Notes: generated from the letters alone by a model not told the origin. A stretch of DNA of 64,000 nucleotides from Bacteroidota bacterium (GCA_947466965.1 CANIFU010000003.1:23151-87150); one strand, 5' to 3'; positions 51,841 through 59,038 are shown, counted from the first letter of the stretch. A program made the numbers and translations.

Positions 51841-52686
51841 TTGAGTATGATTATTAAAAATTATACGAACAGTTATTTAAAACAGAATAGTCCCCATCTA
51901 TTTATAGGCATTCTTATGCTGTTCTTTTCATTTATAGGATTAGCTCAAACTGTTCCTTTGTTTGGTATTAAATTGAAATTTTCGGTTCAGCAAGGTGGTT
52001 TGGAAAATTCACTCATTACCATTACTCGCGATGGCAAACCCTATCGCATTATTGATCCCAGTAAAGGGAAATATTTTATTGATTTGGAATTGGGTTCCAA
52101 TTTTGTTTTTACGTTTAGTAAACCGGGACATATAACCAAGCAAGTAATTATAAATACTGTTGTTCCAAATGGCAGAGAGAAAGAAGATTTCGCCAAATTT
52201 ACAGCCGAGGTTGGTTTGGAGTTGCAGCCAGAAGATAAAATAGTGACGTATACCCAACCCGTTGGTAAAATAAAATATAGCGGAAATGACGGGGATTTTA
52301 ATTTTGATAAAGATTACACCCAAACGGCAACTGAATTACAAAAGAAAGATAAAGAAGCAGCAAAACCAAAACCGAAAGAACCTCCTCCGCCACCTCTTGT
52401 TGAGCCTAAATCGATTGTTCAATCTCCAGCTCCCAGCAACCCTATTCCTGAGCCCCCTAAACCTAAGCCTGCTGTTGTTGAACCTGTTTTCGAATATAAG
52501 CCTGCAGTGAAAAACAAAGAGGAAAAAGTAATTCAAAAAGATCGATTGAAAATTACAATTATAATTGTAAAGATTAACGATATTGATTTTGAATACAAAA
52601 AGGAAGAGTATACTTGGGGTGGAACATATTATTATCTGAATGGAAAAAACATAACCCAACCTACATTTGAAAAGGATACAGAGTAG
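51841..52686 (+). CDS. Secreted/anchored hypothetical protein with Pro-rich linker
   Basis: N-terminal hydrophobic segment. A beta-rich domain. 'KPKPKEPPPPPLVEPK...PEPPKPKPAVVEP' linker. About 60-aa C-terminal domain. Confidence 0.55.
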   Translation: MSMIIKNYTNSYLKQNSPHLFIGILMLFFSFIGLAQTVPLFGIKLKFSVQQGGLENSLITITRDGKPYRIIDPSKGKYFIDLELGSNFVFTFSKPGHITKQVIINTVVPNGREKEDFAKFTAEVGLELQPEDKIVTYTQPVGKIKYSGNDGDFNFDKDYTQTATELQKKDKEAAKPKPKEPPPPPLVEPKSIVQSPAPSNPIPEPPKPKPAVVEPVFEYKPAVKNKEEKVIQKDRLKITIIIVKINDIDFEYKKEEYTWGGTYYYLNGKNITQPTFEKDTE

Positions 52687-54243: not shown

Positions 54244-54771
54244 TTATCCTTCTTTTTCTGTGTTTTCATATTTTACAATGTCAGTAGCAAAATCAACAAA
54301 AAACTTATGTGCTGAAGTAAATACGAAGCGGTTATCACCTGTTTTTTCGATAATGTTTCTTCTGTTTAATGTGTTGATGAAGTTTTTTCGAGCATCAGCA
54401 TCTTTTAGTTGTTTGTTTGAAAGAATCAAATCGATGTATGACGAATTTGTAAAATAGTTTTCTATTTCTTCCATTTCAAATTCACTGAATTGGATTCGTT
54501 CAAGGAAATTTTTCCCATCTCTATCTAACTCGTAACTCAAAAGAGCAATGAAAATACAGATATCACGAGATAACATTTCTGCGGACTCTTCAGAAACAAC
54601 ATAAGCGTAGTCCTGTGTTAAACGCAATTCATAATTGAACGATGCTTTAAAAAAGTAGGTATAGGATTGCTCATTATCTTTCACAGTTTGATAGGTGCGT
54701 TCATTGGGCAGCATAAATTTACCTGCCATTAGATCTTCTACAATTTGTCGGTGGTGATTAGGAAATTCCAT
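54244..54771 (-). CDS. Small component (175 aa) of three-gene SMC-like ATPase operon; possible MukE/JetB-like or ABC-3C third component
   Basis: Its start overlaps the upstream gene by 14 nt, suggesting translational coupling. It is acidic with mixed alpha/beta character. The C-terminal 'RRNIIEKTGDNRFVFT' could be a winged-helix. I recognise no catalytic motif. Confidence 0.55.
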   Translation of the reverse strand: MEFPNHHRQIVEDLMAGKFMLPNERTYQTVKDNEQSYTYFFKASFNYELRLTQDYAYVVSEESAEMLSRDICIFIALLSYELDRDGKNFLERIQFSEFEMEEIENYFTNSSYIDLILSNKQLKDADARKNFINTLNRRNIIEKTGDNRFVFTSAHKFFVDFATDIVKYENTEKEG

Positions 54772-55978
54772 GATTTGGATCGATTAGTTGTGATTGTTGA
54801 TTGATAGTTACTTTAGGTACCGTTAATGTGAGGTCGTTGATTTTTATTTTATCAAACTGTGGCTTAGCACCGTATTCACGTTCGATATCTTCATCAAATG
54901 CAAGGGTTGTTAGCGCAAAGAATTTTTCAATTTCTACTTTTTTATAATCTTCTTTCAATGTTTTGTTACACCAACTAAAAAAATTATCAACGGGTAAATT
55001 GTCTTTTAATTTTTTTGTATAATGATCTTTGTCAAAGATCCATTTTTCAGCTTCATTTTCTTCCTCTTCAAAATAAACATCTGTTTCATTTTTGAATTGT
55101 TCAAATATTTCAGATGCATTGAAGAATGTATCTTTTGAATAGACAGAAACTTCTTTTCTCTTCAGCAGTTTTGGTGCTTTACGTTTGTATGGATTCTTTA
55201 AGTAGGTGATCCAACCTGTTAAAATAATAGATTCTGTTCTGATACGCTCAATCAATGGAAGTAATTCGTTCGTCAGAATCTTTGATTGACGAAGCAAATT
55301 ATCATTTACCTGAATTAATTGAAAATAAAGTTTTTCAAACTGAATGCGAGCATTTTCATCATCAAAATTTAAACGATATTTATTAGATAACTCTGAAATT
55401 TCATATAATTTATTTGCAACAGATGTCGAGTGATTAATGTCAAGAATCTTATTCAGAGGGATAATATATTCATCGATCCAACGGGAAGCTCGAACAATTT
55501 TTTCACGATAATCAATTTTCTTAACATTCGCTTTTAATTCACGTGTTTCCTGTAATAAACTCTGTGTGTTACGCTCTACCATTTCATAGAAAGAACGAAC
55601 TTCAATTGCAAGATCGTTTAATCGTTGGCTTAATGTAACTTTATCACCATTGATATTTTCTCTGATCTTTCTGAACAGTTCAGCAATTGAAGTGTGATAT
55701 TTTTCAATTGTTTCGGGCAACATTGGTTTAAATTCACTCAAAATGAACTCAATTAAGTTGAAATAAACCGTACGTATTTCGTAATTGTCGTTTACGGGAC
55801 TCAATATTTTATATTCAATCAATTGTGAACGGATATCACTTTCGTGTTTCGAGACAATTTGATTCAATACTTCGAACTTTATGATCCCTTCATTGGATTG
55901 GGTTTCAAACAATTCAGCGATTACATCATAATGTTCTAGTAAAAATCGGAGTATTGTTTTTGGTTCTGCCTTCATCAT
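54758..55978 (-). CDS. Middle component (406 aa), all-alpha/coiled-coil; possible kleisin-like (MukF/JetA-like) or ABC-3C middle component
   Basis: Predicted almost entirely helical with heptad-like stretches. N-terminal about 90 aa could be a winged helix. It starts 16 nt after the ATPase stop. No nuclease or ATPase motifs seen. Confidence 0.55.
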   Translation of the reverse strand: MMKAEPKTILRFLLEHYDVIAELFETQSNEGIIKFEVLNQIVSKHESDIRSQLIEYKILSPVNDNYEIRTVYFNLIEFILSEFKPMLPETIEKYHTSIAELFRKIRENINGDKVTLSQRLNDLAIEVRSFYEMVERNTQSLLQETRELKANVKKIDYREKIVRASRWIDEYIIPLNKILDINHSTSVANKLYEISELSNKYRLNFDDENARIQFEKLYFQLIQVNDNLLRQSKILTNELLPLIERIRTESIILTGWITYLKNPYKRKAPKLLKRKEVSVYSKDTFFNASEIFEQFKNETDVYFEEEENEAEKWIFDKDHYTKKLKDNLPVDNFFSWCNKTLKEDYKKVEIEKFFALTTLAFDEDIEREYGAKPQFDKIKINDLTLTVPKVTINQQSQLIDPNHGIS

Positions 55979-55993
55979 TTATACTATTTTTAC

Positions 55994-58687
55994 CTAGTTC
56001 AAATCTTTTAAATTTTTCTTTCCAATTTTTTCAACTACTGCGTTTCTTTCAACAATCACAGCATTTTGTTTTTCGTTGATATTGATCTTTCCTTTAGAAG
56101 GGTAAATAAAATAGTATTTATTAAATCCTTCAACAGCATCTGGTGCAGCAAAAATAGGAATGAAGTTGTGCGCATTACAGAATTTTACAAGTTCTGGTCG
56201 GTTTTGTTTATCGATTGTTGCAACCTCATCAATAAACAATGTTATTTTATTTTGTTCATCAGTAATTGCTAAACGATTTATTATTGCCATGATGATTACC
56301 AATCGGATCATTCGATCCGTACCATCAGATTCAACCTGATTTGCTAAGTCTACTCGTTTTTCTGTTCCTTTTATTTCCAATAATAATTCGATATTGAACA
56401 ATTCATCAAAATGAACTTTTTTACCAGTATCCAGATACGTGTTCAGGATTTTCAGGTTTTCTGATTGGTCAAAATCAAAACTCATTTGACCGTTAAATTC
56501 CTGAATGGAACTGATTTGCTTTAGTTCACTGATGATACGTTCATTATCAATTAAATCAATTTTTAGAGACTCTATATTGGAGATACGAGTGGTCGCTAGC
56601 TTTGTATTGAATTTGTCGTAAACGAATTGTTTAAACTCTTCATAACGCTTTAGTAGCGTAAATGCAGGATTCGCAAATTGAGTAGAAATACTAGACAATA
56701 AACCATCAATACTTCTTTCTTTATCGCTAAGGCATGCAATTTCTTCTTCTACGAAATGGATAAACTCTTCTTCATCAGCTATATTGCTTCTTAAGCGGTA
56801 TTTTAATCCTTCAAAAGCAACATCTTTGTTTGCTTTAATGTCATGACGGTCTTTTTGATGAATTTGAATTTTAGAATAGATATAATCTAAATTGTCGTTT
56901 GTTTCGTATTCTCGAGGTTCCACTTCTATGGATTCCATTTCCATTTTACGGTCTTTCAATTCTTTAACACGAAGTTCAAGATTACGTTTTTCTTCGTTTA
57001 ATTTATCAAGCATAATTTGTTTAGAAGCGATTTCTTTTACTAAATCATTCAAATGCAATTCTAAATCTTTCTTTTCTTCATTGTATGATTTGATTTCATC
57101 AATAATGCCTTTAACGGCTCTTTCCAATTGCGGTTTTGTTTCAATTCCTTTGATTTTTTCCTTGATTACTTCAAGTTCACCAAGAATACTTTTTAATTTG
57201 AAATCGGTTTTTTCTTTGTCAACAACTGTTTTTAATAATTCTTCAGTTATTTTCTTTTCAGAAAGTAGCACTTTTAGTTCATCCTTTAATTCCTTAACAG
57301 ATCTGAACTCAGTCAGTTCTAATCCTTTGGAGATATCAATTTCCCCATCAAAAATAGTCATCAGTTTGTCTGATACTTTTTTGATTTGTTTTTTGATTTG
57401 TTTGCTTGGTAAACTTAATACCTGTTCAGAAAGTATTGCGTTTAAAAGTTGCTTTGTTTTTTCGTCATCAGAAATTTTGTGAATCAATAAGTTGTTGTAA
57501 TTGTTGATCTGGTTTTCAACAGATGCAATTTTATCATTTACTTTTTCCAAGCGGAATTCAAGGTGCTTGCTAGATAATTTCTGACTTTCAATTGTTGTGA
57601 TACGATTCTCAATTTCTTTACGTTCCTTATCCAGATTTTTCATGGATTCCTGGAGGAAATCGATTGTTTCGTATTTATTGATTTCATCTAATTCTCTTTG
57701 CTTTTCGTTCAGATAATTAGTTTTGTTTTTTATTTCAGCATTTTTTTCACCTATGTATGAAGCGTAATTTAATTCCTTCGGTTTTAAAATTTCGTTGATT
57801 TCATTATGAATGGCTGCTATGTGTCTGCCTCTTTCAACGGAAGAAATTTCTAATTCCGGTATGGCAGCTGTATAAGCAGTGTTGAAAGCGTAAAGCAATT
57901 CACTCACAACGGTTGTTTTTGAGCTGTGCATTTTTACCAATTCTCTGAAATCCAGAAAGTCGGTACGAACAGCTTTAATGCTTTTTATTTCTTCATTGAT
58001 CCTCAAAAGATCTGTAATGTCTTTCTTATTTTTCTGAGAGAAATTCAATCCTTCATTTTCACGATTATCTGCTATAATCAAGGATTCTTTTAATGTTTTA
58101 TTGGTGATCAATTTGGAGTTGATCAGGTAGCGGTATACTTTTGAAAAGTTATTACTTAAGCCATCAGCCTTCACTGTATCTTCTAGCCAAACAACCGCAT
58201 TGTTTTTTGTTCCTCTGTGATATACATGATTGAAAACATCTGATTTTGTTGCGAATTTGCTATGCAAAACACCTTTTTTATTCAAGGTCTCAATTACTTC
58301 ATCAAAGCTCAATAAACGTTGGTGAGTGCCTTCGTTTTCGAAGAAAAATTCTTCATTATATTCATTGTCGATCTTATAATATTCTAGTTCTCCGTCAGTA
58401 TTTCGTTTCACCAAAATGCAATAATAGCCCATTTTATTAATTTCGAAAATCAAAAAACTCTTATTATGAGTAGGGAAGTAGTGATGAATCGTTTCTTTAT
58501 CACCTTTACGCTGGCCGCTGAATGACATTTTTTGGCCGTCAACAACAAATAGGAAATTCAAGGCATAAATCAGCGTCGATTTTCCAATATTGTTTGGTCC
58601 CACCAACTGAATTGAATCACAATTATCGAGTTTCATTTCGGCTTTGCCGTAACCTTTTGAGTTAATTAAGGATATTCGAGTAAGCAT
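55994..58687 (-). CDS. SMC/MukB/Rad50-like ABC ATPase with long coiled-coil (897 aa)
   Basis: N-terminal Walker A 'VGPNNIGKSTL'. About 450 aa of K/E-rich heptad coiled coil in the middle, with no hinge domain and no CxxC zinc hook. C-terminal degenerate signature 'ESDGTDRMIRL', then Walker B/D-loop 'ITLFIDEVATID'. Confidence 0.75.
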   Translation of the reverse strand: MLTRISLINSKGYGKAEMKLDNCDSIQLVGPNNIGKSTLIYALNFLFVVDGQKMSFSGQRKGDKETIHHYFPTHNKSFLIFEINKMGYYCILVKRNTDGELEYYKIDNEYNEEFFFENEGTHQRLLSFDEVIETLNKKGVLHSKFATKSDVFNHVYHRGTKNNAVVWLEDTVKADGLSNNFSKVYRYLINSKLITNKTLKESLIIADNRENEGLNFSQKNKKDITDLLRINEEIKSIKAVRTDFLDFRELVKMHSSKTTVVSELLYAFNTAYTAAIPELEISSVERGRHIAAIHNEINEILKPKELNYASYIGEKNAEIKNKTNYLNEKQRELDEINKYETIDFLQESMKNLDKERKEIENRITTIESQKLSSKHLEFRLEKVNDKIASVENQINNYNNLLIHKISDDEKTKQLLNAILSEQVLSLPSKQIKKQIKKVSDKLMTIFDGEIDISKGLELTEFRSVKELKDELKVLLSEKKITEELLKTVVDKEKTDFKLKSILGELEVIKEKIKGIETKPQLERAVKGIIDEIKSYNEEKKDLELHLNDLVKEIASKQIMLDKLNEEKRNLELRVKELKDRKMEMESIEVEPREYETNDNLDYIYSKIQIHQKDRHDIKANKDVAFEGLKYRLRSNIADEEEFIHFVEEEIACLSDKERSIDGLLSSISTQFANPAFTLLKRYEEFKQFVYDKFNTKLATTRISNIESLKIDLIDNERIISELKQISSIQEFNGQMSFDFDQSENLKILNTYLDTGKKVHFDELFNIELLLEIKGTEKRVDLANQVESDGTDRMIRLVIIMAIINRLAITDEQNKITLFIDEVATIDKQNRPELVKFCNAHNFIPIFAAPDAVEGFNKYYFIYPSKGKININEKQNAVIVERNAVVEKIGKKNLKDLN

Positions 58688-58975
58688 CTTTTTTTTCGGA
58701 TTATAAGATTTATGCTCAAATATAACTTAATGCTTTGGGGTATTTATTGGTACCTATTCCTGTTAATAACAATTCCTTTAAAATATGGGGTGCTAGAGCT
58801 TCTTTGTTAAAAAAAATAAAGTTTTTAAAAGTTTTAACTGGCACTTGATTCTTGTCAAAAAAAAGGTTATAATAAATTATTATAGAAAGGATGCAAGCAT
58901 TATTTTTGTATTCTTTTACATTTTTTTTAGTGGGAGTGGCAATTGGTTTATTCACTAAAATGTATGTGTAATTTT

Positions 58976-58997
58976 ACAGAACGTATACACGTTCTGT
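58976..58997. promoter_or_regulatory. Perfect 9-bp palindrome with 4-nt loop upstream of the three-gene operon
   Basis: 'acagaacgt-atac-acgttctgt', followed on the plus strand by 'gttttatt'. It sits between the mtaB stop and the ATPase gene. Confidence 0.4.
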
Positions 58998-59038
58998 GTT
59001 TTATTGGCAATAATTTTTGTATTAATAAGTATTTTTAA

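Follow-up and report, generated by a model that had tools for sequence, protein, structure and literature searches.

MksBEF systems, Muk-like complexes of the SMC type (for structural maintenance of chromosomes) that reportedly owe their name to the nomenclature of Petrushenko et al. 2011, are scattered over bacteria, in which they serve functions as different as chromosome management and plasmid restriction. MksBEF of Pseudomonas aeruginosa, a second condensin in that species, has a role of the chromosome organisation and segregation type, and the genes of the E. coli MukBEF complex stand in the order mukF-mukE-mukB. Mks operons canonically run mksFEB(G), an order kept by Gram-positive and Gram-negative carriers alike (PMC10123090). 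We examined a stretch of 64,000 nucleotides from a Bacteroidota bacterium (GCA_947466965.1, CANIFU010000003.1:23151-87150; hereafter the window), which carries on its minus strand a three-gene operon (the triad) for an ATPase resembling SMC proteins, a kleisin and an MksE-family protein, arranged as B-F-E. It appears reasonably probable that this operon specifies a diverged MksBEF-type SMC complex, whose likeliest job is chromosome organisation, segregation or DNA-damage tolerance.

Identity of the three subunits

The operon opens with an ATPase gene (55994-58687) for an MksB/MukB-like, SMC-family ATP-binding cassette (ABC) ATPase of 897 amino acids (aa). It is followed, after a gap of 15 nt (55979-55993), by a middle gene (54758-55978) for a 406-aa kleisin of the MksF/MukF/JetA type, which in turn overlaps by 14 nt (54758-54771) a small gene (54244-54771) for an acidic, KITE-type subunit of the MksE family, 175 aa in length. 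Calls of the open reading frames (ORFs) and their translation bear out the original prediction, made from the nucleotide sequence alone, of three co-directional ORFs with these sizes, this gap and this overlap; the small protein, with an isoelectric point of 4.84, is indeed acidic.

The small subunit provides the most direct assignment by profile. It matches Pfam PF21980 (MksE) at E=3.9e-21 over profile positions 2-161 of 163, scoring 76.6 bits where the gathering score is 27, and one member of its 90% cluster bears the NCBI name "condensin complex protein MksE". The kleisin has no Pfam-A match above threshold and is assigned by its architecture. Its AlphaFold model (mean predicted local distance difference test score, pLDDT, 68.6; confident within domains) consists of an N-terminal winged helix (residues 9-82; 55733-55954), a helical bundle (residues 87-261), a disordered linker (residues 262-315) and a C-terminal winged-helix-like domain of helix-plus-sheet composition (residues 317-393; 54800-55030). 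The earlier description of this protein as all-helical thus holds only approximately, since both terminal domains contain beta elements; the kleisin-like winged helix that had been proposed as a check was found. Kleisins rank first when the model is compared with the PDB by Foldseek, the leading matches being JetA 8q72_E (E=1e-4), MukF 9gm7_C/D and JetA 8dk2_A, with further MukF structures (1t98, 3euh, 3rpu) also among the top. Among 1.84 billion representative proteins, a search with the family profile recovered only 122 relatives of the kleisin; 15 of 25 distant full-length relatives match NCBIfam NF040857 (best E=5.6e-45), which supplies a transitive sequence link between the window kleisin family and the family that occupies the kleisin position in Mks operons.

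The ATPase comprises an N-terminal head (residues 1-215), a first arm (218-391), an apical segment (392-470; 57278-57514), a second arm (471-697) and a C-terminal head (700-865). Its catalytic motifs are intact. Translation confirmed the predicted N-terminal Walker A, GPNNIGKST (residues 30-38; 58574-58600), and the C-terminal LFIDEVATID (residues 817-826; 56210-56239), which combines Walker B, the catalytic Glu and the D-loop; both are invariant, Walker A in 48 homologues, as are a candidate H-loop His and the residues E786-S-D-G-T-D791 within a signature-like motif, VESDGTDRM (residues 785-793; 56309-56335). The sequence contains no CxxC zinc hook, as had been claimed. Two other elements of the earlier description have to be revised. 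In place of about 450 residues of continuous coiled coil, the AlphaFold monomer (pLDDT 71.8) shows a split head and two helical arms, interrupted by the apical segment of ~80 residues, which is non-helical and modelled with low confidence. Conservation in this segment exceeds that in both arms (entropy per column 1.09 bits on average, versus ~1.5 bits), with invariant residues at LLI400-402, N416, FDG446-448 and I450. A search of the PDB with a profile of the segment returned nothing significant and matched no known hinge; nonetheless, with a conserved non-coiled-coil segment at the apex, the term "hinge-less" is unsupported, and the segment is better described as a candidate small hinge or dimerisation domain.

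Structure comparison places the ATPase closest to MukB, which accounts for the top four Foldseek matches (E ~1e-18; full-length MukB chains in these results have 1,467 residues), followed by Rad50 (7zr1_C, E=8e-13), Smc5/6 and JetC (~2e-11), with LmuB at ~4e-5 to 7.5e-5. Pfam, NCBIfam and PADLOC yielded only matches at the level of the P-loop (including AAA_21, and SMC_N at 13.7 bits); for the three proteins together PADLOC gave weak P-loop matches to AriA and HEC-01A, the Pfam MukB, MukE and MukF models gave none, and sequence searches of the PDB with all three proteins and their family profiles returned only coiled-coil noise. Some homologues of the ATPase carry precomputed PF12128/DUF3584 matches. 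When the long ORFs of the fetched loci were scanned with regular expressions, an SMC-kind Walker A at the N-terminus turned up in no further protein; the sole other long ORF with a Walker A was one of 935 aa in locus L084, with GVSGSGKS and LSGG motifs.

A sequence-level connection to described Mks proteins came from plasmids, where tblastn with the ATPase led to a 909-aa relative on a Ralstonia solanacearum megaplasmid. BLASTP aligned the two C-terminal heads at E=2e-18 and the N-terminal heads at E=1e-11, with the signature-like motif VESDGTDRM of the window opposite IESTGTTMM in Ralstonia, so that both share an unusual ES-x-GT, and a phmmer search with the Ralstonia ATPase matched 87 triad-ATPase ORFs (best E=3.6e-32). 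The 909-aa protein is encoded last in a run of genes for proteins of 404, 185 and 909 aa, which match, respectively, NF040857, NF040858 together with PF21980, and NF040859; the 185-aa protein has additional weak matches to MukE and DUF4194. These matches make the Ralstonia run a canonically ordered Mks operon. Direct profile alignment by hhalign gave weak results for MksE (28% probability against Ralstonia MksE) and no support for the kleisin against the single Ralstonia sequence, and the family link is accordingly made through the Pfam and NCBIfam models and the transitive matches. Taken together, the Pfam match of MksE, the architecture and Foldseek ranking of the kleisin, and the MukB and Ralstonia matches of the ATPase identify the products as an ATPase, a kleisin and a KITE protein of the MksBEF type; with all three subunits assigned, the resemblance to MukBEF and MksBEF noted in the original prediction is real.

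These assignments bear on two readings in which the ATPase belongs elsewhere. In the first, the operon is an abortive-infection system of the Lamassu or ABC-three-component (ABC-3C) type, in which a coiled-coil ABC ATPase resembling LmuB is joined by a middle and a small component. The layout of three genes led by such an ATPase is superficially compatible, and the AriA and AAA_21 matches, weak and confined to the P-loop, point the same way; however, there is no LmuA-type effector domain and no match to an LmuB or LmuC model, the LmuB structures score ~13 orders of magnitude worse than MukB, and the ATPase is accompanied by a kleisin and an MksE KITE protein, the very components that define SMC-kleisin complexes. 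PADLOC recognised no Jet, Mks or Lmu model in the three proteins and made no defence-system assignment. We regard this reading as highly improbable, and effectively ruled out by the subunit assignments. The second would have a DNA-repair ATPase of the Rad50/SbcC or RecN type lying merely beside two unrelated genes. Rad50 is the second-best structural class, and some sources label homologues "SbcCD ATPase subunit"; yet the zinc hook is absent, no SbcD/Mre11 gene lies nearby, MukB scores ~five orders of magnitude better, and the genes keep together as a trio from locus to locus, the middle and small ones overlapping almost universally and encoding a kleisin and a KITE protein. On partner identities and structure rankings it is rejected, and we give it very little credence. 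Canonical Smc-ScpAB was also considered and set aside: Pfam detected no SMC_hinge, ScpA or ScpB match, and NCBIfam no SMC_prok_B match for the window ATPase.

Gene order and the fourth gene of plasmid-borne relatives

Matches were found in 283 GTDB species genomes, and loci from 80 GTDB species genomes were examined. In every related locus with enough sequence the order is ATPase, kleisin, MksE, and the kleisin/MksE overlap recurs in nearly every one; since gene content and order recur wherever a related locus is long enough, the arrangement is not due to chance. The claim of a non-canonical gene order therefore stands, for the B-F-E order of the window and its relatives differs from mksFEB(G), and the conservation of the latter elsewhere (PMC10123090) makes it a real departure. 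The kleisin-KITE-ATPase order is an organisational convention and not a functional requirement. One metagenome-assembled genome (MAG) has a gene of 1149 aa, with a C-terminal sorting domain of the type IX secretion system (Por_Secre_tail), between the ATPase gene and the kleisin/MksE genes (L026:11666-15115), which indicates that the ATPase gene can be uncoupled from the kleisin/MksE pair. Spacers of 0.4-0.8 kb occur at the ATPase/kleisin junction in several other loci (L018, L072, L076, L083).

No recurrent fourth gene family was present within 4 kb of the triad in the 80 loci, in which the commonest neighbours were mtaB (31/80) and lgt (14/80). Pfam annotation revealed no nuclease among the neighbours, and neither Pfam nor PADLOC detected a JetD/MksG Toprim (TopoVI-A-like) nuclease in the operon or beside it. 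Scans of the three proteins with Pfam, PADLOC and NCBIfam likewise detected no Toprim, HNH or PD-(D/E)xK domain. Both parts of the earlier claim, that the proteins lack a recognisable effector domain and that no effector gene is linked to them, are therefore upheld, the latter by the annotation of neighbours, the 80-locus survey and a homologue search with the fourth gene described below.

That fourth gene was encountered in the plasmid-borne relatives. In Ralstonia (L087:8660-9535) and on the Persicobacter plasmid pPP6 (L088:9690-10547), a gene encoding 285-291 aa follows the ATPase, in the position of MksG/JetD, and both products show similarity to DUF7281 below the gathering score. The pPP6 system adjoins a relaxase and a HigB toxin. 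The DUF7281-like gene may encode an effector subunit, so far undescribed, in an Mks defence variant of the PF21980 type; no homologue of it was found in the window or the loci.

The Ralstonia operon also exposes what appears to be an exchange of names among the NCBIfam models relative to the literature. NF040857, with 412 positions and the name "condensinMksB", matches the first gene, which is of kleisin size (L087:4231-5445), and NF040859, called "condensinMksF" (926 positions), matches the SMC-like ATPase (L087:5977-8706), which in the literature is MksB. Annotations drawn from NF040857 and NF040859 would mislabel Mks subunits.

The plasmid-borne operons give some substance to a third alternative, in which the triad is an anti-plasmid or anti-mobile-element SMC system, nuclease-less or served by a nuclease in trans, and derived from Wadjet/MksBEFG; loop extrusion would sense small circular DNA, with silencing, or recruitment of a nuclease encoded elsewhere, to follow. 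The best structural match of the kleisin is JetA of the plasmid-restricting JetABCD system, and the nearest identifiable relatives, on the Ralstonia megaplasmid and the Persicobacter plasmid, are four-gene systems with the DUF7281-like protein where MksG/JetD would lie. Opposed to this are the 80 loci devoid of a fourth gene within 4 kb, the lack of a DUF7281-like homologue in window and loci, and the failure of PADLOC to recognise a Jet, Mks or Lmu model. Its standing depends further on the history of the locus, to which we now turn.

Distribution, selection and probable role

Pfam identifies the flanking genes as LGT and as a methylthiotransferase of the MiaB/MtaB type (UPF0004 plus Radical_SAM), in agreement with the predicted position between lgt and mtaB. 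The ATPase and kleisin each have ~800-900 homologues, of uniform lengths. Viral collections contain only P-loop-level matches, and plasmid collections lack the triad family save for the distant relatives on the Ralstonia megaplasmid and the Persicobacter plasmid. In base composition the triad block equals its flanks, with no anomaly, and no flanking repeats that might represent an insertion footprint were found at the triad junctions. Among closer relatives the conservation of the triad exceeds that of mtaB and lgt from the same genomes; in locus L007, for instance, the triad is 98-100% identical, compared with 87-90% for mtaB and lgt. Of the eight closest pairs, most show less nonsynonymous divergence (dN) in the triad than in the flanks; omega values are ~0.002-0.035 for the triad versus 0.03-0.08 for the flanks and are rough, as synonymous divergence (dS) is near saturation.

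The history of the site was approached through a metagenome scan with the upstream mtaB. The triad follows mtaB in 6/6 loci with >=82% mtaB identity and >=5 kb downstream. In five more distant relatives (mtaB 68-77%; L106, L108, L109, L126, L135), mtaB is followed directly by lgt with nothing between, and this junction represents the ancestral or an alternative "empty site" of the triad. Relative to such genomes the block is an insertion, as had been suspected, and its presence in close relatives together with the adjacency of mtaB and lgt in distant ones implies that an ancestor of the window's clade acquired it at this junction, or that other lineages lost it, with fixation since then. A second triad clade, whose ATPase is 55-60% identical, has the block in other neighbourhoods; the two clades share just one usable housekeeping orthologue, too few to calibrate triad divergence between them.

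The notion of a fast-moving or patchy defence island is not sustained by these results, since the block is fixed in the window's clade, evolves more slowly than its housekeeping neighbours and is compositionally ordinary, and it is further countered by the lack of flanking repeats and the absence from plasmid and viral collections. The same evidence divides on the anti-plasmid alternative. The absence of the block from the mtaB-lgt junction of sister lineages, and the other contexts of the second clade, are in its favour; purifying selection above that on housekeeping neighbours and uniform lengths are atypical for defence genes, and the triad was found neither on plasmids nor on viral contigs and shows no anomaly of composition or flanking repeats. 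On balance we judge this alternative unlikely, though clearly more probable than the other rivals.

The intergenic region contributes evidence of independent expression. A candidate -7 promoter element, TATATTTG (58717-58724, minus strand), lies ~30 nt upstream of the codon at which the ATPase gene starts. The sequence TAnnTTTG, which we take to be the Bacteroidota -7 promoter consensus, occurs within 120 nt upstream of the ATPase gene in 37/55 loci, compared with 8% of random windows, and 29 of its occurrences fall in the bin 30-39 nt upstream of the start. This suggests that the triad has its own promoter; a scan for sigma-70 promoters and terminators gave background levels. Also in the mtaB-ATPase intergenic region is a perfect palindrome with a 10-bp stem (58975-58998; TACAGAACGT ATAC ACGTTCTGTG), terminator-like on the plus strand only, the coding minus strand having no T tract.

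The absence of a linked nuclease, strong purifying selection, a stable chromosomal setting and an own promoter together favour chromosome maintenance over nuclease-based defence. Of the two possibilities raised originally, a diverged or novel anti-plasmid/anti-phage module and a non-canonical chromosome-organising complex, the second is the better supported. Support for such a role also comes from a nuclease-less DUF3584 triad in Shewanella, which is needed for cisplatin resistance and whose ATPase gene is cofit with the two genes upstream of it (10.1101/072470).

Several observations weigh against this interpretation, apart from the roughness of the omega estimates. All homologues derive from Bacteroidota MAGs or metagenomes, without a cultured host. 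The ATPase goes unrecognised by the curated models for Mks, Jet and Muk (NCBIfam equivalogs, PADLOC), and the kleisin meets NF040857 only weakly and far below its cutoff (E=3.4e-5; 22.8 bits against 750). The inferred hinge is left unfolded in the monomer model and matches no solved structure. Where mtaB-linked loci diverge most, conservation of the triad (72-75%) falls below that of mtaB (80-83%). The five empty mtaB-lgt junctions belong here too, as do two loci with 80% mtaB identity (L100, L102) in which no triad lies within 8 kb of mtaB; such empty or vacant sites possibly reflect the gain and loss dynamics typical of accessory systems.

If the operon does encode a complex for chromosome maintenance, its operation can be sketched by analogy with MukBEF, JetABC and MksBEF. 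Two 897-aa ATPases would pair through the conserved apical segment, and their heads would pair transiently when bound to ATP. The kleisin would bridge the heads, touching one ATPase at the neck with its helical N-terminal part and the other at the cap with its C-terminal winged helix, and would probably dimerise through its N-terminal winged helix, with MksE dimers seated on its central region. ATP binding and hydrolysis might then drive DNA entrapment and loop extrusion.

Many Bacteroidota encode Smc-ScpAB. A more ambitious proposal, which we think quite doubtful, is that the triad serves as the principal condensin of an uncultured Bacteroidia lineage, in which it would have displaced Smc-ScpAB after descending from an Mks/Wadjet-type ancestor, losing the DUF7281-like subunit and becoming domesticated. 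If true, this would constitute an independent, MukBEF-like takeover outside the gamma-proteobacteria. A Hi-C study found two Bacteroidetes without a recognisable condensin and invoked "currently unidentified SMC complexes" (PMC10197239); were the proposal correct, the triad would be a concrete candidate for such complexes.

Two observations concern the window at large. A cmscan with Rfam over its full length (1-64000) gave no family at gathering score, and no tRNA, rRNA or riboswitch was detected. Between an inositol monophosphatase gene and lgt lies an ORF of 281 aa on the plus strand (51841-52686), without a Pfam match and with a central stretch rich in proline and lysine (…KPKPKEPPPPPLVEPK…PEPPKPKPAVVEP…).

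Comparison with known systems

Literature on PF21980, on Bacteroidota and kleisin, and on MksBEF and Bacteroidetes furnished no description of the window's clade. Newer Pfam entries have begun to appear in precomputed annotations, PF28010 on close homologues of the kleisin and PF28007 on one homologue of the ATPase; two of the three subunits nevertheless escape ordinary annotation, every source labelling them "hypothetical protein", and surveys in which Bacteroidota appear to lack a condensin homologue may under-detect such complexes. The clade is unusual in how extremely its proteins have diverged from the Mks, Jet and Muk families that have been modelled, in the very strong purifying selection that acts on it and in the loss of the fourth gene of its mobile relatives. 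It offers a natural case of a defence-like SMC module apparently domesticated for a core function, or of the reverse.

Among the known systems, E. coli MukBEF provides the top structural matches of the ATPase (MukB) and some of those of the kleisin (MukF), and is likewise chromosomal and without a nuclease; MukB, however, has about 1,470-1,490 residues, with much longer arms and a defined hinge. Wadjet, or JetABCD (equivalent to MksBEFG and EptABCD), shares the core of SMC-like ATPase, kleisin and KITE protein, with JetA the top match of the kleisin and JetC at ~2e-11 for the ATPase, but the window operon has no JetD/MksG Toprim gene within or near it, no PADLOC Jet matches and a different gene order, and it behaves like core genes. 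The Shewanella DUF3584 module (Sama_0594/0593/0592; Price et al., 10.1101/072470) is also a nuclease-less triad, of two small to medium hypothetical proteins and an SMC-like ATPase; its numbering implies that the ATPase comes last, in an F-E-B-like order, and its likeness to the window operon lies in the layout and in the PF12128/DUF3584 matches of some homologues of the window ATPase.

The closest likeness is to MksBEF, for which the Ralstonia operon serves as reference. Subunit sizes are near-identical (about 900, 400 and 180 aa), the small subunits share PF21980, the ATPase heads can be aligned, including ES-x-GT, the kleisins have the same domain layout, and the arms are short compared with those of MukB or Smc. 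The differences are the order B-F-E as opposed to F-E-B, the DUF7281-like fourth gene present in the Ralstonia and Persicobacter relatives and absent from the window, and the distribution of the window family, so far confined to uncultured Bacteroidota. In addition, the window proteins fall below the NCBIfam equivalog cutoffs of NF040857/8/9, the ATPase and small protein being unmatched altogether, which places them on a distant branch and not among the equivalogs of the modelled Mks proteins. The triad is therefore a very divergent member of the known MksBEF family, with a reordered operon, rather than a new type of machine.

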